Counted from the whole stretch's first letter, positions 10,942 through 43,554 are shown. The stretch is 46,924 nucleotides of DNA, filler included, from Jimgerdemannia flammicorona (GCA_003990765.1; 2 parts of 2 records of this genome joined end to end with filler, not necessarily neighbours in it), one strand, 5' to 3'. Numbers and translations: made by a program. The notes: generated from the letters alone by a model not told the origin.

Positions 10942-10943
10942 CT

Positions 10944-16343: not shown

Positions 16344-16356
16344 AAGGAGGGGGAGA
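16344..16356 (+). promoter_or_regulatory. Polypurine tract AAGGAGGGGGAGA
   Basis: Directly abuts the TGTAAC start of the 3' LTR. Confidence 0.9.
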
Positions 16357-17159: not shown

Positions 17160-18895
17160 AAGTATATTGAATTTGTAGTTCCCTATCTACTATAAGAAGT
17201 AAACTTCAAGTAATTTAAGAAGAGAAGAGGGGTATCAACTAAGATATAAGAGTTGACAGAAGATAATATATAGAATTTACAGTCCTCTCTTCTGCCTACA
17301 ATAAGAGATAACCCCAAACTACTAATTAATATAATTGAAAGGAGTATGCAGAATTTATAATCCAATTACTTTTTATAAGAAACAACTTTAAGCAATTGAA
17401 CTCTGTCTCAGTTTAGCCTCCTAACTCTATACAGTAATACTATATCAGTAATACTACAAAGCAGAGTCAAGAGGCCAGTAAAGCTTAGAAAAAAAAATAC
17501 TCTAAAACTAGTTCTATATAGAGATACTTACTCTAACTGCCTATTCTTTATAAAAACTACTCTATCTGCTAACCCTAGATCTTAATTAGTCTGTTATCTA
17601 TTGTGAGTATAATGATTGTAGTATCTGAACTCTTCTCAGAGATAATAGTACTATAGTAATTTTATAGCTAGAATAAAATAGTAATATTGATTATGAACAG
17701 AACTTCAAAGTTATAAGTAAGATTATACTAAATACTATTACTACTCTGAGTCTACTCAAATCATTTTCCACAATCTTCAAAATTATACTAAGGTCAGTGA
17801 GAAGTTCTGGGGAAGTGGAGGGAGTATTTGTATCTTCTTGACTCTCTAGAAGATTATTGAGGTTTTCTTTCTATAATATAAATGAGTTGCCACTGTTCTC
17901 TAAATTCTGAGGAGTGATATCAGTAGTGATGATATCATTATTGGTGATGTTATCATTGGTGAAAGATATGGAGTATTCTTGCTACTATTCTTGAGAATGA
18001 TATTTTTATCTATAAAGTATAGAATATCTGTAGAATTCTGAGGAGCATAGACTCTTAGAGGAGGGCCTTGAAACAGTGCAATCAAACTATAGATAAACTG
18101 GTCTAGATTGTCTTCTAGGAGGGAGTTTCAAAGGTCTTAAGTCTTTTTACTTCTGAGTAAAATAGTAAATTGGGCCTCTTCTGCTATCATCTATTTAAGA
18201 TGATTTATACAATAGATTGACAGTTCTTGAATATTAGAGGTCTTGATATACTACAAGTTAAGGATGGCCCAGGGGGTATGCCTGAAGATTTGATGGATTC
18301 TCTTGCTTAATTACTACTCATACCTGTCCATAGATATAGTATCTGAGATTTTTTAGAAGTTAGTTTAAGAGAATTCTTAGTGGAGGTAATATTCCATCTT
18401 ATATTCTTACTATATAAGAAGGCATTTAGTGGCTATTGTGATTCTTATCTCTATCTTATAGTAGTTTAGAGTGAAGTGACAGAGGTCTCTTATATAGAGA
18501 TTTAAGCTTAGAATCTTTTTAATATATATTCTTATAACTCTTCTGATATTATTGAATATCTATACTTGAACTGATAGTCCTGAGTGAGTTCTTGATCTGG
18601 CTGTCTGATAGAGGGCAGGTATTTTGTTTTATATTGAGTCTTATATTTAATACTTGATACTTCTTCTTAATGCTCTCTTTTATAATTCTGGTATCTTCTC
18701 CTTTGGTCAGGAGTATGGTTATCTGATTGAGAGTAGTATACTCCTGAGGTCATTATGAGTCATTATGAGTTCAGATAAAGATCATCTTATAATCAAGATG
18801 AGTTATAGAGTAAGTCATATTTTACAACTAGTAGCTTGCAAAGAGTAAATAGTCTTTGAGGTTCTAATGTTACTGAATTCAGAAGCATCATTACA
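17160..18895 (-). mobile_element. Probable solo long LTR carrying an unknown ORF remnant (ATG at 18763)
   Basis: Begins TGTAATGA at 18895. It is homologous to 25696-25931 plus 31685-32690 and to 21100-21822. The left boundary is approximate. Confidence 0.6.
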
Positions 18896-19041
18896 ATATA
18901 TATTCATTGAGTTATAAATCAAACCTTAAATCAAATTAGTCTTTAATTTGATTTAAGTTAAATTAAATTGAACCTTTGATTCAATTGAATTGAATTAGGT
19001 TTGAGTTAAATTCAGTTTGATTTAATTCATTGAGAGTACTA
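18896..19041. mobile_element. Right end of another TAGT(A/G)CT hAT-MITE copy
   Basis: (AATTG/AATCA)n repeats ending TTGAGAGTACTA, the same end as 43442-43453. Confidence 0.75.
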
Positions 19042-20765
19042 TATAAAAAGAGAAATATTTTACCTAATATACTCTAATATAATATAAATATATAGCTAGA
19101 TAAACTCTTAATCTAGAACTTTATACTACCAGATAATACTAGAGAAGGATACTTATCTTTTATTGAGCCCTGAGAGCCCTGGCTTAAAAACCTATCTAAT
19201 CAGATAGTATTTAGTTAATCCTTTTGATTTATATATAAAGATTCCTCAGGTTGAATAAAAAAGTCAAATATTTATTTTATAAGATATACTGAATTTTATT
19301 AAAAATATATATATAGCTATACTAAGAGTACCACCAAGCTGATCTATTATTTGCTTTAGTAATTTGCTTAAAGATCTTTAGATAATAGCTACTATTATTA
19401 TATAGACTATATTATACTTATATAAGTTTACTCTCTAATAGTACTTCTGAAATTTCAGTAAGAGAATAAAAAAGTTAAAAATTTCAAAAATAGTTAAATA
19501 TGGAGAATTTTGGAAAAATCTTAAGGAATCCACCCTTTATTAATATTGCTATATATCTAATTTCTATCCAAACTCCCCCTCTTTACTTTTTATACTTTCT
19601 CTTTCCTGCTATTTAATATTTGATATAATTCTTACAAATCTTATTTATATAATATTAAAGCTTATTACTATAGAGTTTCCTCACTACTATTATATATAAC
19701 TATATATCTATCTACAATTATTAATAATAATATAATTCTCATCATCATTGAATACTCTAGTAGACAAATGAGTTCTTTGATCAAGAATAATTAGCTTTAA
19801 ATTGAATATTAAACCCCAAGTCTTAATAATAATATTAGTATTACTTATACTGAATAGCTTGCTCTCAAACTTCTCTAATATTAGATATCAAATGCAGCTA
19901 AACTTAGGTTACTTTGAATTCTTCTCTATAGTAGAACTAAGCTTTGATCTAAGTCAGTAAGCTGAGAGATATATATAGATAGATTGTATATAAGTTTTTT
20001 TTTAAATAAATAAAAAAAAGAGAAAGATAAAAGTTAGAATAAGAGTGAAAAGAAGATAATATTAGGACAAGAATAGAATAGAATCAGATTGAATTATATA
20101 TAAATAAAGTACTCACAAAGACTCACTTTTGGTCTTTTTGAGATCTTCACTTTATAATATATTGACTCAATAGCTCAGCTATCAAAGATATATCTTATAA
20201 TATTCTTTGGTTTTTCTTCATATTGATCAGATATTGTGAATAAAGTTGGCAGATCTAACTATAGAGTTGTGGACCCTAAGAAAGAAAATAGTATAAATGA
20301 TATAAGTTAGATTATATTATAGAATTTAACTAGTTATAATAGTAAAAAGATACCTATATTTACTACTAGCTACTCTACAAAGACTACTATATATATAGTA
20401 TTACATAGTGGTTATATAGTCCTTCAAATATGCCAAATTCTCTTCAAGGTGTATCTCTTAGACTAACTCAAGTTTGTTATAAGTAAGTTCTTATTGGAGT
20501 GCCTTCCCAAGGTCTTATAGTCCTCAAACTTCTTATCTTTAACTGTCTTGTTATCTCTTAGATTGTTTGTAAGGAAGTATATATATTGTACTGAGAGGAA
20601 CTGACTTTATTTCAGAGGAAATAAGGGAAGTATTTATATAAAATATGATTCAATGGTTGCTAAGATATAAAGCTAAATATAAATTCTAATAACTAAAATA
20701 AAATGCCAGGACAGGAAAAACTGCTAAGTTCCAGAGTCAGTACTGATAGTTATACAGATTCAAGA

Positions 20766-20888
20766 TGCTGGTATAATTTAGTATCATATCAGAATACCAA
20801 TACTGGCATTATTTAGTATTACATCAAATACCAGTGCTGGAACAATTTTGTATCACCTCAGAATACCAGTGCTGATATTATTTAGTAT
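20766..20888. repeat. 35-bp tandem repeat (TGCTGGTATAATTTAGTATCATATCAGAATACCAA-like), about 3.5 copies
   Basis: Directly visible head-to-tail units. Confidence 0.8.
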
Positions 20889-21303
20889 AACCAGGAGACT
20901 TAGAGCAGAATGTTCAAGACTATAGGGGCTTCATCATTAGAGGTCAGGATGTCTTCAAAGAAGATGAGGTCTGCAAATTCATCATTATAGTCATGTAGGT
21001 CACATGTTTCATATACTTCACATATTTTACATATTTTATGCTCATTGTACATCTCACATATGTTGCACAGGATGATGTCATCACTAATGATGTCATCATG
21101 TTCAATAGCAGCAGGAAGGAGGTCTGGGGCTCTCTAGTCTATGAAGTTCTCTTCCACAAAATAGGGAACAAATGTGGGGTCTTAGGGAGATCTAACCTGG
21201 ATACTTGGGTCTTGGAATACTGAGATCAATCCTTGCAGGAATTGGTCTGGGTTGTCCTGGAGGATGGGGTGCCAGAAGTCTTCTACTTCATCACTATTGA
21301 GGG

Positions 21304-21665
21304 TAGTACTCCCAATAAATTGAATTGAATTGAATTTGGCCCAAACTCAATTCGATTCGATCGAATCAAGGGTCCAATTTGATTCAATTTGAATCGAATC
21401 AAAGGTCCAATTCAATTTGAAGTTCGATTCGAACCTTAATTTTCAAAATGTAATAACTCGACGAAAACTCATCCAAATTTAACATATTTTAGCATGTTAG
21501 ATTCACTGTATTAATGTGATTCTAACAAGCTAAAGTATGTTAGATTTGGATGAGTTTATGCTGAGATATTGCATTTTGAAAATTAGGGTTCAAATCAGAC
21601 CCTCAATTCGATTCAACTTTTGATTTGATTCGATTTGAATTGATTCAACTCATTTGGGAGCACTA
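21304..21665. mobile_element. hAT-type MITE (362 bp) with an internal hairpin
   Basis: TIRs TAGTACTCCCAA and TTGGGAGCACTA, 8-bp TSD ATTGAGGG/ATTGAGAG. The homologous uninterrupted site is at about 32180-32195. Confidence 0.93.
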
Positions 21666-21821
21666 ATTGAGAGTGATAGTGGACTGGGCTTCTATAGCCA
21701 CCCTGGCTTCTAGTATATTGATATAGCAAGATGACAGGTCTCTGAAATCTGAGACTCTAACATACTCCAAGTTAGAGATTGACCATGGTGCATGTCTAAA
21801 GATCTGATGGATCTTCTTAGC

Positions 21822-21823
<2 letters not shown>

Positions 21824-21862
<39 letters not shown>

Positions 21863-22919
21863 CTTTTTTTTTTTATAGTTACTTGAACTTCCTTTCTTTA
21901 TTATATCTATCTATCCCATATAAATACAGTGATCTCACCCCCTATCCAATCTCCCTAGGGGGGCTCTCTCTCTCTACCCCTACCTGATGAAATACTACTT
22001 TGTCTAACACCATCTCTACCCTCCCACTACTCTGTTCACAAATCCTTGCTACAAAACTGTGATATCATCCCCCCTGAGAACTCCAACCCACCCACCATCC
22101 AGTCAGCAGATCCTCCAACAACTTCTCTCACTACAATACCTTCTCCTATAGCCCCATCTGCTACTCCTCCTCAAAAACAAAAAGCCAATGTCCAGCCAGT
22201 CCCACCCACACTACTAACACCCACCCTATAGTGAGCCAACTATCATCTATACCACCCACTAACCAAGATCTCAAGTCCTCCCAGCAGCCTCCCTCACCTG
22301 CCGGCCTTCGCTCTCACCTAGTCTATTCCCTATTTCTACCCAAAAGTCCTCCAAAATCTCACACTCTCCCAGCCAGTATTTTGGCATCTGCACAAGTCCC
22401 CCAGCTTGTCCAACATTGTAGTACTTCTCACAATCTAAACAGCCACCATCCACCAGATGCCCAGTGTGGTAATTCAATATGATATTCCTCTACAACATTT
22501 GCCACTATATCACTCAGAACTTGGGAGGAAGCCACCTCTTCACCTCAGCACTCCATGACCAGATATCTGCTCAGTTCCACTCCTTGTCAATCTCTGCCAC
22601 CTGCCAGCCATTCAGCCAAAGATCCTGACCAGGATCCTGCTGATACTCCACTCCATCCCTAATATCAAACTCAACAAGGGAAGTACCCCCCAGTAGCAGT
22701 CTATCTCATTGCCATATATCAGGACTCCACATCACCTCTCTCTTATTACCTTGCCAGTGCAGGCCAATTTGGTGTGCTCCATCTACCACCCCCCACCAAA
22801 AGCCCTTAAACTGCAGCCACTGATTTCCATTCAGCCCCACCAAAGAGAGTAGATCTCCTGAGAACCCTCAAGGGGAGGTTCTCATCTCCCACACCTTCTG
22901 CAATAGTGGCACCCAACCC
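21824..22919 (-). mobile_element. 3' end of an L1/Tx1-like LINE (ORF2 C-terminal Zn finger, 3' UTR, poly(A))
   Basis: Poly(T) at 21824-21874 and GCLDCEKYY..KYWLGECE. Homologous to 41430-42480. Cut off by the hAT end at 22920. Confidence 0.9.
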
Positions 22920-23413: not shown

Positions 23414-23513
23414 NNNNNNNNNNNNNNNNNNNNNNNNNNNNNNNNNNNNNNNNNNNNTTAATTAATTAANNNNNNNNNNNNNNNNNNNNNNNNNNNNNNN
23501 NNNNNNNNNNNNN
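23414..23513. other. Artificial scaffold gap: N44-TTAATTAATTAA-N44
   Basis: 100-bp spacer containing a linker with stops in all six frames. Confidence 0.97.
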
Positions 23514-24170: not shown

Positions 24171-25354
24171 TGCTCCTTTCTCTGCTACCTTACTGGTCAC
24201 ATTGGTTTGATAGGCAATCTTCTGAGTCTACTTTTCACAACTACTACCCTCTTTACTTTAAGTTGGTTTGTTATACCTATTGTAGGGCAGTGGGAGAGAG
24301 GCAATAGTGGTGAGTTGTCTCTTTAGTGGTATCAGATTGATGTCTTCTTCACTTTTTTGTAGCTCTGGTATCTTTAGTGCCTCCAGTTGTATCTGGGATA
24401 TATCTGTTTTGGTGTAGTATCTTCTTTCTTTTGCTGTTATCAATAAGATATCATCTCAGTATGTCATGGGCTGTGTAGGATATTGGCCAACCTTGGGTAT
24501 TAAATATTAGTATAGGTTATCTACAGATTGCTTGGTGTCTGTGGTGGGGCTCTCTGAGCTTTGGTAAGCTTTTTAGTGAGTATAGTACTGATATAGATGA
24601 CTACTTTTTAGGTAGTATTAGGTTGGGAGGAGAGATGGCCATCATAGATAAGAGAAAGAGCAATTATAATAAATTAGTAGAGTATCAGACTGGGAGTGAT
24701 CATTAGGGTTGGAGTAGACATTATCTTAGTGGGGCTTTCTGATTGGCTGATAGAGGGTGGGATAGTATAGAGACTAGTATTCTAACTATACCCAACTGGA
24801 ACTAAGAGCTGATACAGTAATATAATTGAGGCCTATAGGCTTAGAGAGTGGGATCTTCTTTATTTGACAGTATCTAACTAGAACTGAGAGCTGATATGGT
24901 AATATAATTGAGATCTATAGGCTCAGAGAGTGGGAGTGAGGTCTTTTCTGGCCCTAGCCCATATATAAGTCCTTTTGGAGAGAGTCTCATATATAAGTCC
25001 TTTACTTACCTACTTTGAATCTACTTTGTTCTTTATTAGTTAGTTGGGGAGTTTTTTCTTTATCTTAAACTTTTCTTTAAGGTTTGAGGGATATTCTTTA
25101 TTCAGTCCTAGTGCTGCTAGATCTGATACATAAGTATGCTCTCTCATGCTTCACAATGATCTAGCCCTAATAAGTAAATAAGTCTAGTTTATATCATATA
25201 GCCAGTGTTCAATAGGCATAGCTAGAGTAGTAGAACTACTGAATAATTTAGTAGTCTAAATTAATAGAGAGATAATATTCAGTAGGTAGTAGGAGAGAGT
25301 TTTGGTCTATATAGTCTAGGTCTCTTCTATTAAAAATCTATAGAACTATGAGTT

Positions 25355-25386
<32 letters not shown>
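24171..25386 (+). mobile_element. Non-autonomous poly(A)-tailed retroposon, about 1.2 kb (copy 1)
   Basis: Poly(A) at 25359-25386 and a 13-bp TSD ACTCTCTTAT(G/A)GT (24158-24170, 25387-25399). No RT or endonuclease. Collinear with 32689-33965. Confidence 0.9.
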
Positions 25387-25392
<6 letters not shown>

Positions 25393-25526: not shown

Positions 25527-25931
25527 AAATTTCAAGATATAATAAGTTAATCAGATGATAGTATTTTACATTAACCAAATTTTAGAAATCTAGAGATTAT
25601 ATTCTAAGAATATTATAGAGAAATTAAAACTAGATATAATGTATGGAAGTGAAATTAATATGCTCTGATCAATATTATTTCTTTAGATATTATATTGTAA
25701 TGACATCTTTGAAATCAGTAATATCAGAATTCAGAAGACTGCCTTGACTTTATAGTTAAAAATTGTAACTCAACTATAACTCATCTTGATTATAAGATGA
25801 TCTGCATCTGAACTCATAATGATATATAATAACTCTAGTAGTATACTACTACTAGTCAGATAACTCTACTCTCTAGACTAAAGGAGAAGACCTTTAAGAT
25901 ATAAAAGAAGTATCAAGAGAAGAAGTATAAA

Positions 25932-28900
25932 CACACCTTTCACTAATAACATTTAGGTGACACAAGACTCAGACAATACTTTTTGTAATATTTTTGATAA
26001 AAGGAGACTATCAACATAATCAGCAATGAGCATACTGGTCAGTGGATCAGCCAGGGGGACAATAGGGCCTTTGACTGATAGCAGGTCAGAAGAAGGTGAG
26101 GAGATAGGTTAGGAATACCAGAGTTCCCTACAGTTGGCCATAACATTGGTGGTAGAGGGAGGGGCAGAATAAGGCAATAAGGAGGGGGGAGGATGATCTT
26201 TGCTGATAAGATCAAGATGGGGAGGATGTCATCTGGTCTGAATAGTTGGCTGAGACTGGGGAAGACATTGATGGCTTTAGCTGGGAGACAGAGAGGGGTC
26301 TCTATGGAAGGATCTGGTAGTAGGGGGGGGGGGATATAGAGACTGGGATATGATGGCTAATAGAGCTATAACTGGGGATTTGGAAAAAAAATCCAGATGT
26401 GATAGTTATTGGTAGATCAGAACAGGGAGAGGGCACAAGACCTGGGAATCTGGCTAATAACATGACAGGTATGGTGTCAGCACTGTTACTCAAAAAGTTA
26501 AGGTTAGAATATACCATCACATTGTGCTTCCAGGGTTTGGTAGTAACTATGAGGATGATTTTGGGGCTGGTCATACAGAAGGTGAAGGGGGTGACTTTGG
26601 TGAAGTTCTTGAAGGGGAAAGAAGAGGTTGAGGTGGATTTGAGAGAGGGGTATCATTGTTGGAGGCTGTGAAGAAGAGGGTAGTAATGGGCAGTATAGTG
26701 GTCCCTATGGTCAGGTGCATGCACTGGGACCCCTGAGTGATACAGTTGACAGTATTGGATCTTCCTATAGTATCAAGGAAGAGGGCCAGAGAGCTGATTG
26801 TAGAGGTGGTCAAGGAATATGGAGAAATTGTGGATATCAGGTTCAGAGTCTGGGAGGGTACTGAACTCTAAATGAGAAATATCAATGTCAGAGTAAGGCT
26901 GGCTAGGAGGGAGAATATGGAGAAGGCAAGGGATTGGCCAGTGACCCTTAAGTGGAGATCAGTTGAATGTAAGGTTTCATGGGTGAAGAGGATGCCAGAG
27001 GAAGAGGAGACCTTGCTGGAGGCTCTTGAGGATCTGGTAGGAGCAGTAGAGAGGAGGAGATTGACTTGAAAGGAGTATGAAGCCAAGATAGTAGTGGAGA
27101 TTGTGGATGGAAAGAAGATCAGAATGGACTGAGTGGCCTGGGAGAAGGTGCAGGAGAGGTAAATCCAGAAGGAGCTGTTGGAGAAGTTGGGAGGGGGTAT
27201 AGCAGGTAGCAGTACAGAAGAAGAAGGTGCTGAACTGATGAAGAGTACTTGGGCAAGAGAGTGTGGAATGGCCCAGGAGGTGGCCCAGAGCAGATTAAGT
27301 GAGAAGAGACTGGGCAGTATGGTAGAGGATACTGAAATGAGTGAGGAAGTCCACCCTCAGTATGGCATCCCAAGTGGGGCAGGTGGTGAGAAGAAACTAC
27401 TGGATGTACTAGAGAAGAAGTGAGATGAGTTGGGGAGGAGGAGCACCTTGGTAGACCTGGTGGTGGAGGTTGAAGGAGTTGTCCAGGGTGTTGCTGAGGC
27501 AATAGATGAAGAGAAGTAGCTGTAGAAGACTCTAGAGAGAGTGGTGGCTGAGGAGCTAGAGAAAGAGGACTTTCAGGTCCTAAGTGATAGATATTGGGAG
27601 GAAATTCTTCATAGGGAAGAGATGCTGAGGAAGATTAGAAATGAGATCCTGGTAGTGCTCTTAGAGTTGGAGGAATATCAAGTTAATGATTAGAGAGAGG
27701 AGGCCTTTCAAGAGATTGTGAATAACTGAGTGGAATTTAAGGAAGGGGTTGAAGAAGTAGAGAGTGGTATATATAGATTATCAGGCAGAAATGGAGGTTG
27801 TGGATGGGGTAGAGTGTCAGAAAATCTTGGAAGCACTGGAGGCTCAGGCTGTAGTGGAGGATAAGTTGGAGGCAGAGTGGTACATAGATCTTACTGGTAA
27901 TGGGATGAGTATGAAGTTCTAGACTGGGCTCTCAATATCAAACATTATTCAATATGAATAGTACAACTAGAATCTTTTCTTTGAATGTGAATGGGTTGAG
28001 GGAGGCAGCACAGTAAAGAAATATCTTTGGCTGATTGAAGGAGCTAGATATAGATCTTTTCTTATTGCAGGATGTACAGTATGAGGAAGATATAAATTTA
28101 CAGGACTGGACTAGAGAATGGGGTAGAGTGGTAGTATGGACTGAGCAGTTGGGTATCTTGGTTTGAAAGGGGATAGGAGATATTGAGGATATTGGACATT
28201 GGGAGAGTAGACTAGTATGGGAAGTATAAAAGAGGCCTGGATAGAACCTCTTAACTGTTGGATCATATTATTGTCCAGCTGAGAGAGGGGAATATATGGA
28301 TTGGATCAGAGGCTTGAGGGAGGCTGGTATTATGGATGAGGTAGAGATAAATTGTCTGGAGGGTGATTTTAACATAGTACATGATAGTGAGGTGGACAGG
28401 ACTGATAGTGGGAGAGGAATGGGGGGCCAAAGTGGTGGGTTGGAAGATTGGATGGAAATTGAGAGATTGAGCTTCTTGGTTGACTCAGAGTACCAGTTTT
28501 GGGTGAAGTGTCAAATTTATACTCACTGGGTGGCAGGGCTGGGCTCCAGGATTGACTGAGTATTGACAGCAGAGTACTGGAGAGAGAATGTCTGAGATAT
28601 ACTGGAGGTGGTCTGGTGCCCATAGTCAGATCACTAGGGTCTGATAGGGAATAGGAGATTTGGGGGGAGTGGGGATGGACCTGAACATTGGTAACTAAAT
28701 TATTTTTTGTTGGAGGATGGTTCTTTATGGATAGACTGGAAGGTGGAAGTTATTGAGAAGATTGGTGAGTGGTGGGAGCAGGGACTAGTGATTGGAGATC
28801 ACTGACAGTAGTTGAAATTGAGCACTCAGAGATACTGGAGAGAGGCTGGGAAAGAAAGGAGTGCTCAGTGGCAGCAGTGAGTGCAATGGGCTCCTCAGAG

Positions 28901-31675
28901 ATTGGTAGCACTTCTGGAAAGATGGGCAGTGTCACTGGAGGATGGGAGAGTGGCCAATTGGAGAACTTTGCAGATACAAAAGGAAGTCAATGAGCTTAAG
29001 GGTATACTACAAATAGCAGAAGAGATTAAGCTAAAGGAGATGATAGCAAGGTTGAGGTAGCAGGGGTTGGAGGAGGGAGAGAGGCTCACTAGATTTCTAT
29101 CTCAGTCACTCTAAGCTTGGTGAATCAGACAGAGGTGGGATGGTATTTTAAATGAGGAGAGAGAGATAGTGGCAGAGACTTCAATGATTTTGAAATTGCT
29201 GAGAACTCACTGGGGAAACTTATGGAGTGATAGAGAAGGGGGTGAGGATGCCCTGAACATTGAATAGTAGTTAGAGAATTGACATCCAGACCCAGCAATG
29301 GGCCTGGGGTTACTGGGAGACCCAGTGCAGGGGGAGGAGGTATGCAAGATCTTGGCTTCAATATGTAAAAAAGACAGCTCTAAGAGAGGATGAGTAACTC
29401 TGAGATTTTTGAAAAAAGATGGCTGGAGTGGAGGTAGTACTGAGAGAGATGATGGTAATGTATGATGAGGTACTTTGATCTGGAACTTGGATTGGGGGCC
29501 AGTGCTTAGAGCTGGTCTCTTTGCTCTATAAGGGTAAGGGGAGAAGAGAAGATTAGAAGAACTGGCAGCTGATCATCTCCTTGATATAGACTGCAAGCTG
29601 GTGATAAAGATCTTAGTAACTAGGCTGTAGAGGATTGCTCAGCAGGTACTGAGAGGGGAGCAGAGGAGATTTGTAGGTGGTTGGTTAATCTGAGATTAGA
29701 CTGTCTGGGTATATGGAGTAATTGAAGATACTTGGGTGGTCAGAGTTAATGGCTGCTTAGTATTTCTGGATCAGGAGAAGACATATGACAGAGTGAGAAG
29801 GGTCTGGCTGAAGAGAGTGCTGAAATGTGTGGGAATTTCCCTAGGGTTCAGGCAGTCATTAATCAGTCTATTGGAGAATATCAAGCAGCATTAGTAGTGA
29901 ATGGATATAGGAGAGTGACTTTTCCACTTAGTCACAAGGAGACCCTTTGTCACCCATCCTTTATGTCCTCTCCTTAGAGCCTCTATTGGACAGAACTCAG
30001 TATAGAATTGGAGATCTAGACATTTTGGAGATTAACTGGAAGGTTGGGACTTTTGCAGATAATATGATGGTTGGACTGAGTTTCTTGGAGGATGTAGAGG
30101 AGTTATGAAGGACTGTAGAATGGTATGAGAGGGGCTCAGGGGCTCAACTCAATTAGCATAAATATGAGACTCTGATGCTTAGTGGTGGAATAGTTGGCAG
30201 TAATGTGATTGAAATGGTAATTCCAGCCAGAGAACTAGTTTGGTACTTGGGAATATACTTTTTGGTGTATGGGTCTCTTCTGCCCTATACTTGGTAGGAA
30301 TAGCAGCTACTAGTATAAAGGAATGTTCTCTTGAGGTAGAGTGGTTGGCATATTTCATTAGTAGGAAGGGTGATAGTGCTGAATGTATATTGGACACCAA
30401 AGCTGTGATATATGAGGTATCATCTGAACTTCTCAGTATGGGTCATCAGGCAACTTCTGAAGATAGCAACATTATGGATTTGGGCCAGAAGGTGAAGTTA
30501 GATAGGCTGGGAGGTTCTGACTCTATCTGTTGGTAGAGGTGAGCTAGGTTTAGTGGACTTTACCAAATGTCTTCACTGTCTAAGAGCATGGTGGCTGAAG
30601 AGAGTGAGCAAGTTGAGAGGCTGAGAGTGGGTACCACTCATGTAGAGAGTGTGGGAAGTCCAGTATTCACCTCATGAAGTAACTGGTAACCTACTTGCTA
30701 TAGTGGCCCTGGACAGAAGCAGAAGGATGCATTATAAGGGCTTTTGGTGGAGAGTGGTAGATAGTGTAAGGAGAATTGGACTTCAGTAGTGAGGTGATGA
30801 GAGAGAGGAGGACTGGGGACTATAGATGTGGAGATGAGACAGACTACTGCTGAGAGGTACATTGGTAGAGAATTTTCAGCTTGGTGATAGAATGGAATAT
30901 ATATAGGGTCTTGGAGGGGACCTGTGGCCTGAAGTATGGCAGAGGGTGGGGATTGATGAGGAGTGAGACTGGAATAGTCTTTGGCCTTGGAGCAAGCAGA
31001 TAATATAGTGGCTTCCCCCTAAGTTCTGGGTAGTATGGTGGAGATTTCTAAGGCGAAATATAATGCTGAATTATCAGTCTGGGCATTTGGTGGCAGATGG
31101 CATATTTGAGTGTAAGGAATATATAGATATTAGTCAGGAGGGAGGAGTGGTACAAATGCCTAAACATTGGCTTGGAGAGTGTGAGGTCTTGGGAGAGTTT
31201 TGGCACCATATTGCAAACTGTTTAGAACTGCAGGTGAAGAAGGGGAAAGATGGGGGGACCTCTGCTGAAGGTTAGTAGGTGGAGTTGGAGATGAATGGTT
31301 GATCTTAGAATAGGCTCTGGCAATTTGGGTTGGGCTGGCCAGACATTAGTTACATGTCTTCAAGAAGGGCTAGCAGGTTGAGGTTGAGGTTAAGGTAATA
31401 TGGTGAGAATGGTTGATACTTGACATTTTAAATGGCTGGTGGAGAGGGTGGGGACCAAGTGGGGGGGGGCTGGTAGAGTCTGGTGAATTGTATTTGTAAG
31501 AAAAGTGGAGGAAGGGTTCAGGTAGTGGGTGGCTGGGTTATACTCTAGCAGGGAGAGATGAAGAGTGAGAAAGGAGATCTGAGGGGTATCAGTTGAGGGA
31601 CTGTAGGTACAAATGTATTATTATTTATAGACTGAGTGGTAATAAAGAGAAGTCCAAGTAACTATATATATATAA
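25932..31675 (+). mobile_element. Full-length degenerate L1/Tx1-like LINE (copy 1): ORF1 plus ORF2 (APE-RT-Zn finger)
   Basis: ORF2 from ATG 27954: SLNVNGL, GDFN, YTHW..SRID, SDH, FLDQEKTYDRV, QGDPLSP, FADNM, KHWLGEC. AATAAA and a (TA)n/A tail. AAGTATAAA is duplicated at both junctions. Boundaries are good to about 5 bp. Confidence 0.92.
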
Positions 31676-32687
31676 AAGTATAAAGTATCAACCATAAATA
31701 GAAGACTTATTACAAATCAAAATATCTACCATCCACCAAACAGCCAGATCAAGGAGCTACTTAGGTCTATCAGTTCAAGAACAGATATTCACTAATATCA
31801 AGAGAGTAATGAAACTATATATAAGAAGAATCTCTAGTCTGAATCTCTATATAAGAGACCTCTATTACTATACTCTCAACTACTGAGAAATAGAAATAAG
31901 AATTACCACCACTACTGAGTGCCTTTAGATATGGCAAAAATATAAGCTGAGATATTACTTCTGTCAAGAGTTCATATAAGCCAGCTCTTAAGAAATTGTA
32001 AACATCATATGCATAGATAGATATGAATAGAAACTAGTCAAAAGAGTTTATCAGATCTTCAGATATATACTCTGGGCTATTCTCAATTTAGAATATGTCA
32101 AAGTCTCTGATATCTAAGAATTGATAAGCTACTATACAGACTACTTTAAGGAAATAGTTACAGAAGAAGCCCAATCTACTATTATAGTTAAGAGTGATGA
32201 GGTTTAAGATCTTTAGAACTCTATCCTAGAGGACAATTCAGACCAATTCATTCATGATCTAATTGTACTATTTCAAGGCTCTCTCTTGAGAGTCTACTAT
32301 TTCCAGAATTCTACAAATATTCCCTACTTTATAGATCTCACCATTGACTGGAGCAGAATGACCTTATATCTTTTGATGATATCACTCTCTCAGACAACTT
32401 GAAGAATAATGGCAACCTATTTATTTTATTAGAAGATAATAGCAACAACTTTCTTTTCTCATTCTCAGACCCCCCCCACTGACTTCAGTATAACTATAGA
32501 GGATATAGAAAATGATTTGGCCAGACTCTCTAAAAAAAATAAGAAGGATAAAGATGATATAATCTCAGTTACATTGAATTTTAAGATACATGAAGATGGC
32601 TCTATTAGTCAAATTGAGTAAGTTATTAGTTGTACAAATAGTGACTGCATATTAACTAGCCAAATTCATTATAAATATAAAATTAGG

Positions 32688-32688
<1 letters not shown>

Positions 32689-32779
<91 letters not shown>

Positions 32780-33965
32780 GACTTATAGTTCTACAGATTT
32801 TTATTGGAAGGGAACCTAGACTATATAGGCCAAAACCCTCCCCCACCACCCACTGAACAATATTCCCCTATTAATCTAGACTACTAAACTATCCAGCAGT
32901 CCTACCACTCCAGCTATATCTGTCAAATACTGGCTACATTGATCTCCATGATATAGACTAGACTTGTCTGCTTGCCAGGGCTGGATCATTATTTATATAT
33001 GAGAGCACACCTATATGTCAGATCTAGCAGCATCAGGACTGAATAAAGAATAGCCCCTGAATCCCAAAAGAAAGCCAAAGATAAAAAAAAACCCCCCAAC
33101 CAATCAATAGAGAGTAAAGTAGATTCAAAGCAGGTAAGTAAAGAGCTTATATGCAGAACCTTCTGCAAAGAACTTACATATACATGAGCTAGAGCCAGAA
33201 AAGACCCCACTCCCACTCCCCAAGCCTGCAGGCCTCAATCACATTGCTATGTTAGCTCCTGGTTCTAGTTGGGTACAGCCAAATGAGAAAGGCCCCACTC
33301 CCTAAGCCTGCAGGCCTCAATTATATTACTGTATCAGCTTTTGGTTCCAGTTGGGTATAGCTAGGATACCAGTTCCTGTACTACCTCACTCCCCACTAGC
33401 CAATCAAAAGGTCCTACTGAAATATTGTCCACCCCAGTCCTGATGACCACTCCTAGTCTAGCACTCTACTGGTTCACTGTAATTGCCCTTCCTTCTATCT
33501 GTGATGGCCATCTCCCCTCCCATCTCAACAATACTCAAAAAACAGTCACATATATCAGAACCATGCTTGCCAGGAAGCTTGCCAAAGCCAGAGAACTTCA
33601 CCACAGGCACCAAGGACCTATAGGTAATCTACACTGGGTACTTGATGTCCAAGGTCAGCTGATTCCCTATATAATCTGTGATACACTGAGACAATACCAT
33701 ATTAGTGATAGCAAAAGGAAGAAGATACTACACTAAAACAAGTATACCCCAGATGCAGCTAAAGGTATTAGAAACTATGAAAAAGTAAAGAAGACACTAA
33801 TCTGATACTGATAAAGGGGCAACTCATCACTATAGCTCTTCTCCCACCATACCTATATAGGCACAGTACACCAATCTGAGGTAGAGAGAGTAAATAATAG
33901 GGGAAAGGAGACTTGGAAGGTTACCTACCAAATCTTGTAACCAATAAAGTAGCAGAGAAAGAGAC
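32689..33965 (-). mobile_element. Non-autonomous poly(A)-tailed retroposon (copy 2)
   Basis: Poly(T) at 32689-32776 and TSD AAATATAAAATTAG(G/C)C (32673-32688, 33966-33981). Same 5' start (CTTTCTCTGCTAC) as copy 1. Confidence 0.92.
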
Positions 33966-34907
33966 AAATATAAAATTAGCCTTATTCAGTTAGTTAGTCA
34001 CCTAAATACCAAAAGTATACTAAATTGTATCTTCTAGTAATTGTGAGTTACAACTAATTATCAGCCTTATTCTTAGTCTAAAAGTTGTATAAATATTCTC
34101 TGATCTATAGTGAATAAATCTCAGTCAGCTTGAGTTTGAAGTAAAAGAATTACAGAGAAACCCACTATCTCTAAGAGATGGAATAATTCTAAAAAATAAG
34201 ATAACTAGAGTAACAATCACTTGAGGTTTGAGTTGAAGAATTTCTCTAACTACAGACTGTAAGAATTACAGAGAAATCCACTACCTCCAAGAGAATAAAT
34301 AATTCTAGAGATCAAAATATCTACCTAAAGCATAAAGCTCAGAGATTGAGAAGATAAATCACTCTTGCTATTACTGCTATAGAATCAGAATATACTACTA
34401 TAGTTAGATAAGAAAATGACTGCTACTTAGGATACTAAGAACTGTTATAAACCTCAGAAATCAGATACAAGATCTACAGAAAACTCAAGAATACTATATG
34501 AATGAGTCAATTGACCAGAAAACTTCACTATAGTCAGTTAAGACCATCATATAAATTAGATATAAAACTGCTATTAGAAATGACTACCATTTGGAAATAA
34601 GACTAAAGAAAGACTCAAGAATATACTAGATCACCAAGAAATATAGAGAATATATAAAATTGATTACCAGAAACTATACAAATGTACTTCAACCATTTTA
34701 CCATTCTGAATGTTCAGTCACATGACTAATAACTTGAGATACATGAACTCTAACATAATATGAACTTTAGCAAACAAATTGAACAACTGTTTAAATAAAT
34801 ATTGAGCCAGAATATTGTTAGTAAAGTGATAAATAGTACATAAATAACTAGTAGTATATTGAGCTATATATATCAGTAAACTAATCTATAAATCACATAC
34901 TATATTT

Positions 34908-34916
34908 TGGGGGCTC
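34908..34916 (+). promoter_or_regulatory. Primer-binding site TGGGGGCTC (tRNA-Pro-like)
   Basis: Matches the start of the known tRNA-Pro PBS TGGGGGCTCG. Follows ..ACTATA-TTT (mutated ..TACA LTR end) and precedes gag-like sequence. Confidence 0.6.
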
Positions 34917-36679
34917 AACTGGAAAAGTTTTCTAAAGACTTGACCATTTGACTCAAGAACTCAGTAGTTATCTATAGTAGAGAATTTAGGAGGAACTAGC
35001 CAATAGTAGTCTGCTTCAGAAAGAGAAGCACATACTATTGTTAGGACAGCCCTCACTCTATTTGGAATCAATAGTCAAGAAACTGACTCAGAAAAAAGAA
35101 GTGACCCAGACTACAGTTTAACCTCAAGAAAAAGAAGATGCCTCAGAGGACAACTTGAGCCTATACAGACCTAAGATCCAGAGTAAGAAGAAGATTTTCC
35201 TGAAGAATATCAGACTTTAATCTATAGAAGAGATTTAGACAGAAGTGACTATATTACTACTATCATCACTTAAGCCACACTACTAGATCAAGTATATTTT
35301 GAAATATCTGAAAGAGAAGAAGATTACTATTCTTATCTACTTAAGATATGAATTCAATCTTTATCGCTACTCAGACAGAAATATAAACTTTTGGCAAAAT
35401 GAACAGAACCTCACTATTTCATAACAGTAAGAGGTAGATGAACTAAACATTAGCTATATCAGTCCTATTCCAATTGCTAGAACCTCAGTACTCTGGTCCT
35501 TTATATCTCAATACTATTCTCAAGAGATAAGAAGCTCTAGCCCTCTCAATACCTTAGTATTTAGTGATCACTATTATCTAATTAGAGAACTACCATCATC
35601 AAAAACCTCTACCCCAGTTTTAATTAGAAGGGCCAGACTCTTTATACTCTCACCAAGACACTACCTTTTGCCAGTACCACTAGTTTATCAAGTACCTCCA
35701 CCATCTCTATCCTAAGTATTATTAAGAAACTCTACTCTAGAACTAGACTTAGATAGTAAAGATGAATCAGATATGAGCTATCTTCAGAAATTCCATAATA
35801 TAGATAGTTCTTGGAGAAATTGAAGTATAAGTAGCAACTAAGTAGTGAGATGTTCAGAGAAAACTCAGAATTATAGAATTACTCTTGAGATATCCTGCTC
35901 TATAGAAGTACAACCAAGTAAAGTAAATTGGAAGAGATATCAATAGAACAGAATAAGCTAATAATCTTCAAGCAAATAGAGACTATGTAGATAGATATAA
36001 TATCTATAAGATCTGGCTCTACACTTGGTTCAATGATTTCAAGTATTAATAGGAAGTACAAGAAGCTTTGATCTATATGAGCCAAGCTGCCAATGAAATC
36101 TCAAAAAGCTTCTATCATCAGATTCAAGCTCAGATAATTAAGGCAAACTTGCAACCTACAGTCTAATTAGCCCTAACCTCAATCATCTTTCTTAATAGAA
36201 TATTTCTAGAGCTTCAAAGATAAGTCATTAGGATGAGCTATTATAATATTGAGTAATAAGTTACTAGAGTATAATAATGCTGGAAAGTAGACTATAGAGT
36301 ATCTCAGTAGACACAAGAATATCAAGAACCAGCTCAAGTTGAAACCTCAAGAACTCATAAAATAACTCTAGAACAAAAGAATGCCTACTTGAGAGTTCAG
36401 TTGACCAGCTATGAGACCAGACCCCCACCCTCAATTCCAACTCAATAGAAGTAACAATAGTAATTTTCACCAAGAACTCAAGAAGACCCTATAAAAATAC
36501 TTACTAAACAAATAAACTAAGAAGGAAAATAGCAAGATTATCATCAAGAATATAGATCAGACTACTGGCAGTAAGATAATAAGAACTCTACTCAAACCAT
36601 CTTTCTCCAGTAACATTCAGATTACACAATCTTTTGGCAACACTTTCAACACAGTTTCTAGAGACAAGATACTAGTATC

Positions 36680-38730
36680 ATGGCAACCAACAAGCATCCT
36701 GAGGTACATACTGGGCAGGGTGGCCCTGGAGCATTCGAATAGCAGCAAGTGGGGAGAGGCCCTGGCTTGGGGGATAGTATGAGGGGCCTGCTAGCAGGAG
36801 GATGCAGTGGAGGAGGGGGCAGAGCTGGAGGTCAAGGGTCTGGCAGAGCAAGCTTTGCAGAGAAGGTGAAGGGGGGTCAGCAGGAAGCTAGACTGGAGAG
36901 CTGGCTAAGAGGGGGAAAGGTGCTAGTAAGGGCTACAAGTCAGCAACCTCATAGGGGTACCTCTCTGGAGGGCCATAGGGGTGGAGCTAGGGGGGTAGTG
37001 GCTGAGGCGGGGACTGCTAATGGGGTGTGATGGGCAATCTGGAAAAAAATCTAGATGGGACTGCTGATGGTGAGCTAAGCAGTGGGAAGGGCACAAGGCC
37101 CAGGGACCTGGCAGATGGTGTAATAGAACTGGCAGTGGCTCCATTACTCAAGAAGTCGATCTCAGAATTTGCAGTCATAATGTGTTTCTGAGGCTTGGCA
37201 GTGACGGCAAAAATGATTCTGGGGCTGATCATGAAGCAGATGAGTGGTGCAGTATCTGTTAAGTTCCTGAAGGGCCTAGAAGGGGTGGAGGTGGGATTTG
37301 AGGAGGCTGGGCCACTAGAGGAGGCTTTGAAGGCTGAGATGAAAGTGGGCAAGATGTGTATACTGATGGTGAGATGCCTGCGGTGAGATCCAAGAGTAGT
37401 GTAGCTTCTGGTAAAAAGAGTCCCTACTGTTACTACTGTAGAGACAAGGAAGAGAGTCATGGAGATCATAGCAGAGTATAGGGAGGTAGTTGATATTGGG
37501 TTCAGAGTGTGAGAAGGAATCTCTCTCTGGACAGAGGATGTTGATGTCAGGATTTGGTTGGCTGGGTGGGAGGCTACTGAGAAGGCTTAGGACTGGCCCT
37601 CAGTGATGGTGTGGGGGGCTATCTTGTGCAAGGTGATGAGAGTAAAGGGGAGTGAGGAGGAGGAGGAGGATTTGCTGGAAGCACTGAAGGAGTTGAGTAG
37701 AGTGGTGGAGAGGAGGGCGAAAGCATGAAAGGCATTCGAGGAGGCAACATATCTTAAGATGGTTGGAGGAAAGTGGGTCCGCATTAACAAGGAGGTGTGG
37801 GAGAGGTCCCAAGGGTATAGAAGGCAGAGGGAATTGTTGGCGAAAATGGGGGTAGAGGCAACAAGGAAGGCAAGTGATAGTACAACCACTGGAGGTGCTG
37901 AAGTGAGTGTCTGGGCTGCTAGTGGGGGAAAGAATGAGGAGGGGGGGCAGGTGGAGGCCATGAAGGTACCAAGCAAGAATCTATATGAGGATGGCATACT
38001 GGAGGTTTGGGAGGAAACCTGGGAGAATTTACCTTCACCCTCCCCTCTTATCAAAAGGGGTCCAGTGGCAAGAGACAGGGTGGTGGAGGATGTACCAATG
38101 CATGGTGCTCAGCAGGTATGCTTTGGAGTCCCAAATGTAGAGAAGGGGGGATTGGTAGAGGGGACTGGGGAAGAGGAATTGGTGGATGTCCCAGAGGAGG
38201 GATGGAATGAGTTGGCAAGTATAGGGACTGATACTATGATGTTGGATGGAGGGAGGCCAGTGACCCCAAGAGGGAAGGAGGTGGGTAACTTGCTCTGGGT
38301 ATGTTGGATAATGAACAACTTGGCAGCGGAAGAGCTGGGGGAAGTCGACCTCCAAGTGATGAGCGATGAGCATTGGGCAAGGATTCTGCAGGGTGATGGA
38401 GTGGTGGCAGCATTGAAGGCAGAAATTCTGGCAGTATACTTGGAGGAAGAGGGGTATGAGGTTGATAAGGAGAGGGAAGCTGCTCTGGCAGTTGTGGTAG
38501 GTGAGCAGACTGCCCACTGTTAGACTAAGTGGCATAGACTGCAGCTCTGGCAGGAGGCTTGTTTAGAGTATCAAGAGGAGTTTGAGGAAAAGGAGGATGG
38601 AGAGATGGCTGAAATCCTGGCTGAATTGGAGGCTAAGAGGACCGAGGAAGCAGAAGCTATTACTGAGTGCAACCTGGATAGGGCATAGGAGGAAGTGGAC
38701 ATAGAGCAGTAGAGGACACATCTGAAACTA
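36680..38730 (+). pseudogene. LINE ORF1 (Gly-rich N-terminus, SFAEKVK motif, acidic C-terminus)
   Basis: ATG at 36680 and fragments 36749-37030, 37195-37386 and 37759-38523. Homologous to about 26020-27930. The end is approximate. Confidence 0.75.
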
Positions 38731-38743
38731 TATAATTCTCCTT

Positions 38744-41700
38744 ATGAATAGTATAACTAATATTTTTTCTTTAAACATGAATGGGTTATGGAGCACTTAT
38801 TGATATAAGAACATTTTTACTTGGCTGAAGGGATTGGAGGCTGATCTTTTCCTCTTACAGGATGTCAGATGTGAGGATGACTTGGATAGACTGGAATAGA
38901 TGAAGAAGTGGGGAGGTGAGGTGGTTTGGAAGGGCAAGGTTGGAATTCTAGTATAGAAGGGCAGAGGGGAGATACAGGATGTGCAGAGCTGGGGGGATAG
39001 ATTGGTCTGGGGAGAATAGATATGCATAGGTTGGGGGCCAGTCATGGTGGGCTCTTGTTACTGTCCTGTGGTACAGGGCGAGCAGGTGAATTGGGTGGTG
39101 GGCCTACAGGAGAGTGGAATTCTTGTGGGGGTTGGGGTAGATGTGCTTGGCAGAGACTTCAATATGGTCTGAGACATATTGAGGGATAGAACTGATGGAG
39201 GATGAGGAGCTGTGGGTTGGAGTGGAGGACTGGCAGCATAGAAGGAAGTGGAAAGACTGAGTGCTCTGATGGATGCAGGTAGGGAATGTTGGGGGAATAG
39301 GAGGGTGTACACACACTGGGCTGGGGGCCTGGGGACAAGGATTGATTGGATTCTGACAGCCAGCTGCTGGGGCTTGGATGTTTGGAAGTCACTGGAGGTG
39401 GAATGGTGTTCATGGTCAGATTATTGGGGGCTTTTGGGGCAGGGACATTTTGGGGGAAGTGGGGATAGGCCTGGATATTGGTATCTCAATTCCTCCTTAC
39501 TAGATGATAAGATTCAGTGGGATAAATGGGCTGAAGTTGTTCAAATGCAGGTGGAGTACTGGAGGCAGGAGGGTGTCCCAGTTGATATTCAGTAGATGAG
39601 GATGAAAGAGATGGCCAGGGCCTTCTGAAGTAAGGCTGGTATGGAGGCAGAGAGACAGAGGAGGCAGTAGGTGCAGTGGGCATCTGGTAGACTATCTAGA
39701 CTCTTGGAGGACTGGGTGAGATTGGTGACATTGGAGGGAGAGGAGGACTGGTGATTGTTAAGGTTGCAAATGAAGGTGGCTGAACTCCAACAGGTGTTAC
39801 GGAATAAGGAAGAGGCAAGGGTCCAGGGTCTGGCAGCACAGCTTTGTTGGCAGGGGCTGGAGGAAGGAGAGCAGCCCTCAAAGTTCCTTACAAGAGCCCT
39901 TCAGGCAAGAAGGGTGCAGCAAAGGTAGGAAGGGGTGCTTAATGCTGATGGTTCATTGGTGCATGGGGTACAAGACATTCTTGAATCATTAAAGGAGCAT
40001 TGGAGTGGATTGTGGAGTGAGGAGGAGGGTGGGGCAGATACTGAGGACATTGATCAAGCATTGGAGGATTGGCACCCTACCTGAGCAGATAGATTGGGTG
40101 ACTTAGTACTGCCAGTGCTAGAGGAGAAAATCCACCAGATTCTTGCTGTGACAACCTTGGGTACAGCACCTGGGGAGGATGGTCTGCTCTGGAACTTCTG
40201 GAAAAAGATGGTGGGAGTCCCTGGAGTACTGAGAGAGATGATGGCACTGTGTGATTGGATTCTACAGACTGGGAGATGGGTGGGAGAACAGGATCTAGGG
40301 TTGGTGACATTGCTTTATAAGAACAAAGGAAGCTGAGAGGACTGGAAGAACTGGAGACCAATTATGCTACTGGATATAGACAGAAAGTTGATTACCAAAG
40401 TAGTGGTCACAAGATTGCAAAAGGTGGCCCAGCAAGTCTTGGGTGAGGAGCAGCAAGGCTTTGTTGGAGGCCAGCTCATCAGGGATGGCATGGCATGGGT
40501 GCATGGTATTATTGAAGGGGTATGAGCCAGTGGACTGGATGGGCATCTGGTCTTTTTGGACCAGAAGAAGGTCTATGACCAAGTGTGATGGGTCTGGCTG
40601 GTGAAAGTTTTGGATAGGATTGGGGTCTTGTGACAGTTTAGGACTGCTATGGTCAGCCTACTGGAAGGGAGTAGGGTGACACTCATGTGTAATGAACATA
40701 GAGGGGTAGCATTTCCCCTGGGTAGGGGGGTACTCCAGGGGGACTCACTGTCTCTCATTTTGTATGCTTTATCTCTGGAGCCCTTCATGGACAAGATCAG
40801 GCAGAAGATAATGAGGCTCTCTATCTTTGATATCGGGTGGAAAGTAGGGGCATTTGTGGATGACATGGTGGTTGGTCTGGGATCAGTTGCAGATGTTGAG
40901 AAGCTCAAGAAAACAGTGAAATAGTATGAGGCGAACTCTGGGGCTAGGCTTAATTAGTATAAGTGTGAAACAATGGTGTTAGACAATGGTCTGGTGGGAG
41001 GGGAGATTATTGGTACCATTGTCCCTGCTGGTGAGGCAGTATGGTACTTGGGTATTTATCTATCAGTATATAGGTCAGTTCTGCCCAGACTTTGGTGGGA
41101 GCAGTGGGTTGGCATCTGGGAGGAGGCTCTGTGAAGTTGGGGGGGCTGCCAACTGTCTCTGGCAGGACATGTTTCGATTTTGAATGTCTATTGGCTGCTG
41201 AAGTTATGGTATCTGGCTTATCATTTGGACTTCCCAGCTTGGGTAGTGAAGCAATTGATGAAGCTGGCCAAGGGGTAGATCTGGGCTGAAAGGTAGAGTC
41301 AGATCAACTGGGAGGTCTTGTTCTTATCAGTGGTGAGTGGGAGACTTGGGCTGATTGACTTTCCTAAGAGGCTGCACTGCTTGAGAGTATGGTGGCTGAA
41401 GAGAGCAGTAGAGTTGAGAGGGGGTGGTTGGGTTCCCCTACTACAAAAAGTCTGGGAGATGAGGTCCTCTCCAAGGGGTTCGACTGGTGATCTCCTAGCA
41501 CTGGTGGGCCTTCAGAACTCTGAACAATTGTGATATAAAGGCTTCTGGTGGAGAGTGGTGGAGGGGGTATGCTACATTGGAATTAGGTGGCAGAGAAATG
41601 AAGGGGAGGAGGCTTGGGACCCAGCAATATGGAGATGGGACCGAGTGTTACTAGGTGGCATTCTCTTAATTGAGTTTGATATTAGTGATGGGATTGAATG

Positions 41701-43453: not shown

Positions 43454-43554
43454 CTTAAGAATATATCAGAAATTAGATAAAAATTCCTCAAAGAAGCCAA
43501 AGAAGATACTAAGAGAATCTTTATAATATATTTTATAGTTATATATATTGGTTT

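Follow-up and report, generated by a model that had tools for sequence, protein, structure and literature searches.

The window analysed here, that is the whole stretch of DNA, consists of 46,924 nucleotides (filler included) from Jimgerdemannia flammicorona (GCA_003990765.1), in which two parts of two records are joined end to end; all positions are counted from its first letter. It is a eukaryotic repeat graveyard of nested long interspersed nuclear elements (LINEs), a poly(A) retroposon, gypsy elements and a palindromic short repeat, and a composition count puts CpG at 0.20 of expectation. Our subject is an open reading frame (ORF) that is present in three decayed copies, that belonged to chromovirus-type Ty3/gypsy retrotransposons and that, in the lineage represented here, may have lain within their long terminal repeats (LTRs). 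Coordinates are collected in Table 1.

Copy 1 of the ORF lies on the plus strand in an LTR-like unit that is cut by a full-length LINE and by a retroposon. Both can be excised at their target site duplications of 9 bp and 16 bp, as the initial annotation had proposed, and 236 + 1004 + 925 = 2165 nt remain (the right copy of the 9-bp duplication is counted within the LINE interval), in agreement with the approximately 2.2 kb given there. In the alignment of the two copies, copy 2 is uninterrupted at the point matching the LINE insertion, and the retroposon insertion site is bridged by an independent metagenome contig, L001. Copy 2 had been predicted on the minus strand with the same start at 18895, and it is there, with a homologous stretch extending from 18895 to 17643. 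A hidden Markov model (HMM) of intact homologs, run against the window in six frames, finds exactly three copies. The third had been placed at 21100-21822 (minus); the HMM bears out the recurrence but not the extent, since copy 3 reaches 20903, is split by a palindromic insert and is cut at its 5' end by the poly(A) of a LINE. An arrangement with copy 3 as the 5' LTR and copy 2 as the 3' LTR of a single element was ruled out, because the two come from different subfamilies and copy 2 has no purine tract in front of it.

That the ORF is a genuine accessory gene, once under selection and carried by chromovirus-type Ty3/gypsy retrotransposons, is a solid conclusion; the gene encodes a protein of ~320 amino acids from an undescribed family. 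The three decayed copies, their stops replaced by X, were combined into a query profile, which retrieved from protein collections seven proteins at E <= 0.01 among 4403 candidates (best 7.4e-78); a search of 1.84 billion representatives gave five at E <= 0.001, three of them at <= 1e-30. The family members and their cluster mates are intact, measure up to 342 amino acids and come from metagenome assemblies in ENA and JGI, on contigs of 540-2375 nt, the longer ones including those of P0009 (2375 nt), P0010 (1795 nt) and P0003 (1625 nt). Thirteen intact members are 28-93% identical to one of them, P0010, and share 10 invariant columns. Among related loci sought by pattern, two of the 93 metagenome contigs were confirmed, and none of the 65 viral-contig and 29 genome-contig matches.

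The relatives P0010 and P0012, of 323 amino acids, begin with MPAIT, and the matching codon now reads ATA in copy 1 (31722-31724) and in copy 2. L001 has an in-frame stop within the TATA box upstream of the start. The ATG at 25819, from which the initial annotation had begun the frame, is therefore not the start codon; the ORF comprises ~300-323 codons instead of the 350-400 estimated, and lies entirely to the right of the LINE insertion. All three window copies are dead, mostly through C>T and G>A changes. Copy 1 carries 10 internal stops and at least two frameshifts (stops number 11, 32 and 23 in the three frames of a 300-codon stretch), and the second ORF piece of copy 3 has just two stops in 136 codons. 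Against L001, C>T and G>A account for 179 of 321 differences in copy 1 and for 172 of 324 in copy 2, and every dinucleotide context is hit; the intact L001 segment contains four CpG in 1090 nt.

Past purifying selection on this frame had been deduced from third-position transversions between the copies. That comparison does not carry the argument: copies 1 and 2 differ at 55/34/67 sites in codon positions 1/2/3, but the transversions among them number 13/6/11. The comparison with intact L001 does, with transversions at 17/6/28 for copy 1 (p 8e-4) and, less clearly, at 15/9/19 for copy 2 (p 0.17). When all changes other than C>T and G>A are counted against L001, both copies peak at the third position (22/10/45, p 4e-6, in copy 1 and 20/14/41, p 3e-4, in copy 2), and the deduced selection holds.

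The window also contains G1, a nearly complete chromovirus that serves as reference for the carrier. Its LTRs (TGTAAC...ATTACA) are flanked by a 5-bp duplication, GGGAT, and it has retained a primer binding site (PBS) and the polypurine tract AAGGAGGGGGAGA. Pfam matches give the gene order gag, dUTPase, protease, reverse transcriptase, RNase H, integrase and chromodomain, with the dUTPase (1.7e-18) between gag and protease; there is also a Tf2-type SH3 domain, and ~240 nt separate the chromodomain from the polypurine tract. Both LTRs contain TTGTATAAATAT, 17 nt and AATAAA, a module located ~125 nt before the LTR end; U3 measures ~270 nt and U5 ~125 nt. Chromoviruses bearing a dUTPase have been described in fungi (PMC2864245).

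Copies 1 and 2 start at the identical nucleotide, with TGTAATGA, while their upstream flanks are unrelated and contain no pol-like sequence. A TG-type 5' terminus common to independent copies is what an LTR would show; here it is of the TGTAAT type, comparable to the TGTAAC with which the G1 LTR starts and to the TGTAAT that follows the polypurine tract in L002, a more distant locus of the family. The ORF lies ~270 nt past this terminus and ahead of a core promoter. Copies 1 and 3 and L001 have TATAAATA behind it and, 17-19 nt on, AATAAA, both of which also occur in the two G1 LTRs, and copy 1 has the core promoter and poly(A) signal layout of an LTR. In L001, which derives from another sample, the ORF and the downstream part are contiguous, positions 1095-1295 aligning to 33964-34160 of copy 1 (z 15.3). 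Beyond copy 1 and in the same orientation lies G3, a decayed stretch with a G1-like gag-dUTPase region. The shared terminus, the module behind the ORF and this downstream region together place the ORF in the U3 of a chromovirus LTR in the window's lineage, a location that we regard as probable, at little better than even odds. An element would then have an expressible copy in each of its LTRs, and a solo LTR would hold one as well.

Several observations weigh against this location. No LTR pair and no solo unit checked by its duplication is seen, the window ending before any 3' copy and copies 2 and 3 representing other insertions or subfamilies. For the 925-nt 3' part of copy 1, BLAST detects no counterpart behind copy 2 or copy 3, and copy 3 keeps just its TATA/AATAAA module; short alignments suggesting a 3' counterpart are weak, their scores being reached by 15, 25 and 53 of 300 shuffles, with 15 and 53 for those to copy 2. 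Homology between the sequences that follow the PBS-like sites of copies 1 and 2 is undetectable, and the candidate gag frame after the site of copy 1 has neither a Pfam match (34916-37000) nor a homolog (35068-35967, 784 candidates). At 790 nt, the U5 of copy 1 would be longer than those of copy 2 and G1 (~115-125 nt). Between the ORF stop and TATA box 2 there are 182-285 nt, a length close to that of the whole G1 U3, which would also fit an ordinary short LTR right after the ORF. Lastly, TATAT stands just before TGTAATGA in both copies and also before the PBS-like site of copy 1, so that the unit may also be a solo LTR that lacks a PBS and is flanked by a TATAT duplication.

The ends of the two units are as follows. 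Copy 1 closes with ...CACATACTATA, then TTT, then the PBS-like site TGGGGGCTCAACTGG, which we presume to be of the tRNA-Pro type; a clean ...ATTACA is not present. The PBS-like site of copy 2 lies ~115 nt past an AATAAA-like site, a spacing that resembles the 125-nt U5 of G1 and speaks for an LTR; the LTR of copy 2 would then be ~1.5 kb long, compared with 2.2 kb in copy 1. The U5-like stretch of copy 1 contains a diverged direct repeat (34145-34493 against 34261-34623, 62% identity, E 2e-14), which accounts for part of the extra length. No regular array was found in it: Tandem Repeats Finder reported an 11-nt microrepeat only, and ungapped autocorrelation was no better than in shuffles.

The layout of L002, whose protein is 44% identical in the tBLASTn match, is different, and it too counts against a gene within the LTR. 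Here TATAAAAG lies ~75 nt upstream of the ORF, and the ORF ends directly at GGAGGGAGGAT, which is followed by TGTAATAAG. Positions 1223-1281 align to the pre-polypurine, polypurine and LTR-start region of G1 with a score of 22, which none of 500 shuffles reached (maximum 17). Because the ORF ends at a polypurine tract and LTR start, the gene of L002 is internal, immediately 5' of the 3' LTR, and its ORF is outside the repeat. The first 50 nt of L002 match the G1 pol end at a score that 61 of 500 shuffles reach, a lead only. The initial annotation had proposed an LTR-borne accessory gene comparable to the sag gene of mouse mammary tumour virus (MMTV), and had named an ORF outside the repeats as contrary evidence. 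Such an ORF exists in distant L002, while in the window the copies lie between a TGTAAT terminus and a core promoter; the proposal is supported in part, for a U3 position in the window's lineage as judged from terminus and module.

Given L002, the ORF could be internal and 3'-terminal in all lineages, a reading that we keep but consider unlikely. The gene would then sit between the integrase chromodomain and the polypurine tract, a layout that L002 does show, with a normal LTR of ~400 bp starting soon after the stop; TGTAATGA would not be an LTR edge, and copies 1 and 2 would represent the 3' parts of elements. With ~150 nt added, the interval between the stop and TATA box 2 does match the size (402-410 bp) and layout of the G1 LTRs, and ~15 nt past the stop copy 1 and L001 read TG(T/C)ACAAA(T/C)AG, which is faintly like the G1 LTR start but without significance (a score of 13 for L001, where shuffles reach up to 17). 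However, neither L001 nor copies 1 and 3 have the purine tract that should follow the stop. It is also hard to reconcile with such a layout that copies 1 and 2 share their start nucleotide with unrelated flanks and no upstream pol-like sequence, and that a PBS-like site, expected behind a 5' and not a 3' LTR, stands behind both.

Alternatively, the ORF unit may be a separate entity, either a small non-autonomous mobile element or a dispersed host gene family that merely lies near chromovirus LTRs. It has its own TATA box and could use the nearby AATAAA; the contigs of the family are short, with no longer or fused form among 7999 candidates (weak evidence), and the HMM, run in six frames, detects nothing of the ORF in G1, G2 or G3. 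Yet the link to LTR features is kept across subfamilies that are 44-57% identical in protein (TATA-N17-AATAAA comes after the ORF in copies 1 and 3 and in L001, a polypurine tract and LTR start after that of L002), and the TGTAAT-type terminus resembles those of chromovirus LTRs, which makes a separate entity improbable. That the ORF is no gene, but a chance or compositional open frame in AT-rich decayed DNA, can be dismissed in practice: all window copies are full of stops and the codon-position signal between copies 1 and 2 is modest, but 13 intact homologs in the protein collections (E to 1e-78), their conserved columns and the third-position enrichment against L001 refute it.

In retroelements, the plus-strand primer site sets the left edge of the LTR. 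Since the gene is outside the LTR in L002 and apparently inside it in the window's lineage, a boundary shift is the simplest history: the plus-strand priming site would have moved upstream of a 3'-terminal internal gene, and the gene would thereby have been taken into U3. We assign a probability of roughly 0.55 to this reading of the ORF as an accessory gene moved into U3 by a shift of the LTR boundary. No purine tract precedes TGTAATGA in copies 1 and 2, which stand in 5'-type or solo contexts. The first 200 nt of the two copies match the G1 pol end at scores that 28 and 32 of 300 shuffles reach (p ~0.1), again a lead only.

Table 1. Coordinates of the ORF copies, their LTR-like units and other repeats in the window
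Feature	Position	Strand	Remarks
Copy 1, 5' segment of LTR-like unit	25696-25931	+	starts TGTAATGA; 74% identity to copy 2 18900-18654
Copy 1, TATA box 1 TATAAAAG	25900-25907	+	conserved in copy 2, L001, L002
LINE copy 1, full-length insertion	25932-31684	+	9-bp target duplication AAGTATAAA at 25923-25931 and 31676-31684
Copy 1, decayed ORF	31722-32621	+	stop TAA 32619-32621; HMM of intact homologs E 2e-65; aligned to L001, P0010
Retroposon with long poly(A) tail (T run on + strand)	32689-33965	-	16-bp duplication 32673-32688 and 33966-33981
Copy 1, 3' part of LTR-like unit	33982-34906	+	long U5-like stretch after TATA box 2/AATAAA
Copy 1, TATA box 2 TATAAATA	34088-34095	+	AATAAA at 34113-34118; spacing 17 nt
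Copy 1, PBS-like site TGGGGGCTCAACTGG	34908-34922	+	exact 15-mer unique within window
LINE copy 2, 3' of PBS-like site	36599-42482	+	16-bp duplication 36583-36598 and 42483-42498; reverse transcriptase match
Copy 2	17408-18895	-	starts TGTAATGA at 18895; 72-74% identity to copy 1; HMM E 2e-66
Copy 2, features	TATA box 1 18684-18677; former start codon (ATA) 18622-18620; ORF to ~17700	-	
Copy 2, PBS-like site	17422-17408	-	4 mismatches to TGGGGGCTCAACTGG; score reached by 19/2000 shuffles
Copy 3	20606-21845	-	different subfamily, near P0002/P0003; HMM E 4e-26 and 6e-36
Copy 3, ORF pieces	21845-21666 and 21310-20903	-	split by ~350-bp palindromic insert 21311-21665
Copy 3, module	TATAAATA 20638-20631; AATAAA 20611-20606	-	
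G1, reference chromovirus (Ty3/gypsy), nearly complete	10540-16766	+	LTR pair 402 and 410 bp, 87.7% identical
G3, decayed	43129-45125	+	matches G1 11265-13037 (palindromic insert, gag, dUTPase, protease start); 60.3% identity over 1797 nt, E 4e-102
Palindromic short repeat, copies	43130-43446, 11265-11486, 21311-21665, 18906-19102, 9757-10034, 16976-17051, 45193-45549		

G3 may be the internal region of the element to which copy 1 belongs. Its protein-level matches to G1 are collinear, with a weak Pfam match to dUTPase at ~44474-44700, and no G1-type LTR was found in front of it; 2.3 kb of unidentified sequence lie on the path that links it to copy 1. In the element behind copy 1, only the gag-dUTPase-protease stretch matches G1, and the full set of chromovirus domains is seen in G1 itself. 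G1 resembles the window unit in its LTR start, TGTAA(C/T), and in the TATAAATA-N17-AATAAA module; its gag-dUTPase part has ~60% DNA identity to 43375-45125, and its polypurine/LTR junction is nearly that behind the ORF of L002. It differs in that it is without the ORF, has an LTR of ~400 bp and uses another PBS. A frame at 35068-35818 (+), 3' of the PBS-like site, has seven stops in 250 codons, compared with 24 and 18 in the other frames; it could be either a further ORF or a decayed gag.

Other repeats surround these units. LINE copies 1 and 2 are alike at their 5' ends. The sense strand of the LINEs is very rich in G and poor in C (26000-31600, 36700-42400 and 45700-46924 on the plus strand, 21860-22918 on the minus strand), with a GC skew of +0.4 to +0.55 over kilobases and of -0.47 in the reversed copy; their translations are rich in G, W, E and R, with many stops, and strand-specific loss of C and native composition are both candidate causes of the skew. 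The 1.2-kb retroposon is present in two copies with 75% identity, at 24176-25387 (+) and at the site within copy 1 (-), each with a poly(A) tail of ~100 nt; near-pure tails fit a decay that hits only C and G. The palindromic short repeat, ~300 bp long, resembles a miniature inverted-repeat transposable element, is 74% self-complementary and is scattered through the region: one copy splits the ORF of copy 3, and one is found in the leader of G1 and of G3, but not of G2. In the less decayed left part of the window, an uninterrupted frame of 478 codons at 1354-2787 (-) has no Pfam match at E <= 0.01 and no PDB sequence match. Two runs of N, at 23414-23457 and 23470-23513 (44 each, 88 in total), just upstream of the studied region, are either assembly gaps or masked sequence.

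The gene forms a self-contained cassette. It has a conserved TATAAAAG ~70 nt ahead of its ATG (62-75 nt in copy 1, copy 2, L001 and L002), and the first poly(A) signal past the ORF, at 180-290 nt from the stop, is the AATAAA of the LTR itself. Transcripts started at TATA box 1 would include this AATAAA and terminate at it, with a length of ~1.2 kb, close to the contig sizes found for the family. Genomic RNA from TATA box 2 would begin at or after the hexamer and read through. In L002 a direct repeat of 33 nt, 82% identical between 170-202 and 1481-1513 (one of 300 shuffles reaches its score), has one copy ~95 nt upstream of TATA box 1 and the second 217 nt into the downstream LTR; the two may represent a common regulatory site. 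A shared motif upstream of both TATA boxes was not found in copies 1 and 2 or in L001, where 45 to 224 of 300 shuffles reach the scores obtained.

The protein consists of a conserved, mostly helical core of ~215 amino acids and a strongly acidic, disordered tail with short hydrophobic motifs; in the alignment of the 13 members these are a DLISF-like motif and an LNFLL-like motif near or at the end. The tail of P0010 has an isoelectric point of 4.05, with 30 D+E against 3 K+R. An AlphaFold2 model built from the 13 sequences has its helices between residues 19 and 186, two short strands, and a tail that is disordered from residue 217 on, with a predicted local distance difference test score (pLDDT) below 50. 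No membrane segment is predicted. Pfam matched nothing in the decayed ORF frames of the window. Among the 13 members, Pfam gave no family at E <= 1 beyond noise and no gag family at E <= 1, PDB sequences gave none at E <= 1 against the family profile, and the comparison with the G1 gag profile returned a probability of 0.18%. The ORF is thus rejected as a Gag (capsid) gene, and the initial statement that it contains no gag, pol or env motif agrees with all three comparisons. The fold searches, run with a poor model, listed no capsid fold: Foldseek against PDB gave no match at E <= 0.001, the best VIA-align hit in a wide search had a Z of 6.1 over 69 residues, a range common for helical models, and the best ESM Atlas score, 0.91, fell in an unnamed cluster with nothing usable.

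The helical core and acidic tail hint weakly at a regulator. By analogy, the protein might act in trans on expression of the element or on host control, for example as an acidic-tail transactivator, an idea that we hold to be rather doubtful. A regulator of both promoters would fit the acidic tail, the gene's own promoter and the 33-nt motif of L002. Against a functional reading stand the poor quality of the model (mean pLDDT 48.6) and the lack of a fold or family match in any of these searches.

Accessory genes distinguish complex retroviruses from simple retrotransposons. To our knowledge, few are known in Ty3/gypsy elements and none inside an LTR, and among the titles and abstract openings returned by a literature search there is no report of a protein gene within a retrotransposon LTR. 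The closest parallel in position is MMTV sag, a superantigen gene in the U3 of the viral LTR whose product is a type II membrane glycoprotein. It is a sense-strand coding frame that fills most of U3 and is hence present in every LTR, as the ORF described here would be. The two differ in carrier (a chromodomain Ty3/gypsy element here, a betaretrovirus in MMTV), in promoter, the window ORF having its own TATA box ~70 nt upstream, and in protein, which here is a helical core with an acidic tail and without a predicted membrane segment. Similarity to Sag in sequence or fold went undetected in the general Pfam, PDB and fold searches, none of which was a dedicated Sag comparison.

The tas/bel1 gene of foamy viruses is expressed from an internal promoter next to U3. 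It resembles the present ORF as a 3'-terminal accessory gene that adjoins or overlaps U3, with its own promoter and an acidic C-terminal part in the product, and the repeated motif upstream of both promoters in L002 is as expected for a self-activating regulator. There is no homology, however, and host and element class differ. Extra ORFs are known from other LTR retrotransposons, such as ORF1 of the plant Ogre elements. For fungal chromoviruses, a figure legend in PMC2864245 lists an 'add. ORF' of unknown function, which may be related to our family. These frames are likewise lineage-specific genes added to gag-pol; the positions given for them are internal, either 5' of gag or 3' of pol, whereas the present ORF would, in one lineage, lie between LTR terminus and core promoter.

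The protein family is new to domain databases and is intact in environmental assemblies. In the fullest form of our proposal, a lineage of chromoviruses would have acquired, by a shift of the priming site, a complete and self-promoted gene inside its LTR, and every LTR, solo ones included, would autonomously express an undescribed helical protein with an acidic tail, which would act in trans to regulate the element or to dampen silencing by the host; we advance this tentatively, as somewhat less than an even chance. If it is true, gene dosage would rise with the number of LTR relics and not with the number of intact elements, and L002, with the gene outside, and the window's lineage, with the gene inside, would show an LTR boundary migrating over a gene. 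If the location within U3 holds, solo LTRs of this lineage would be gene copies, not inert scars.

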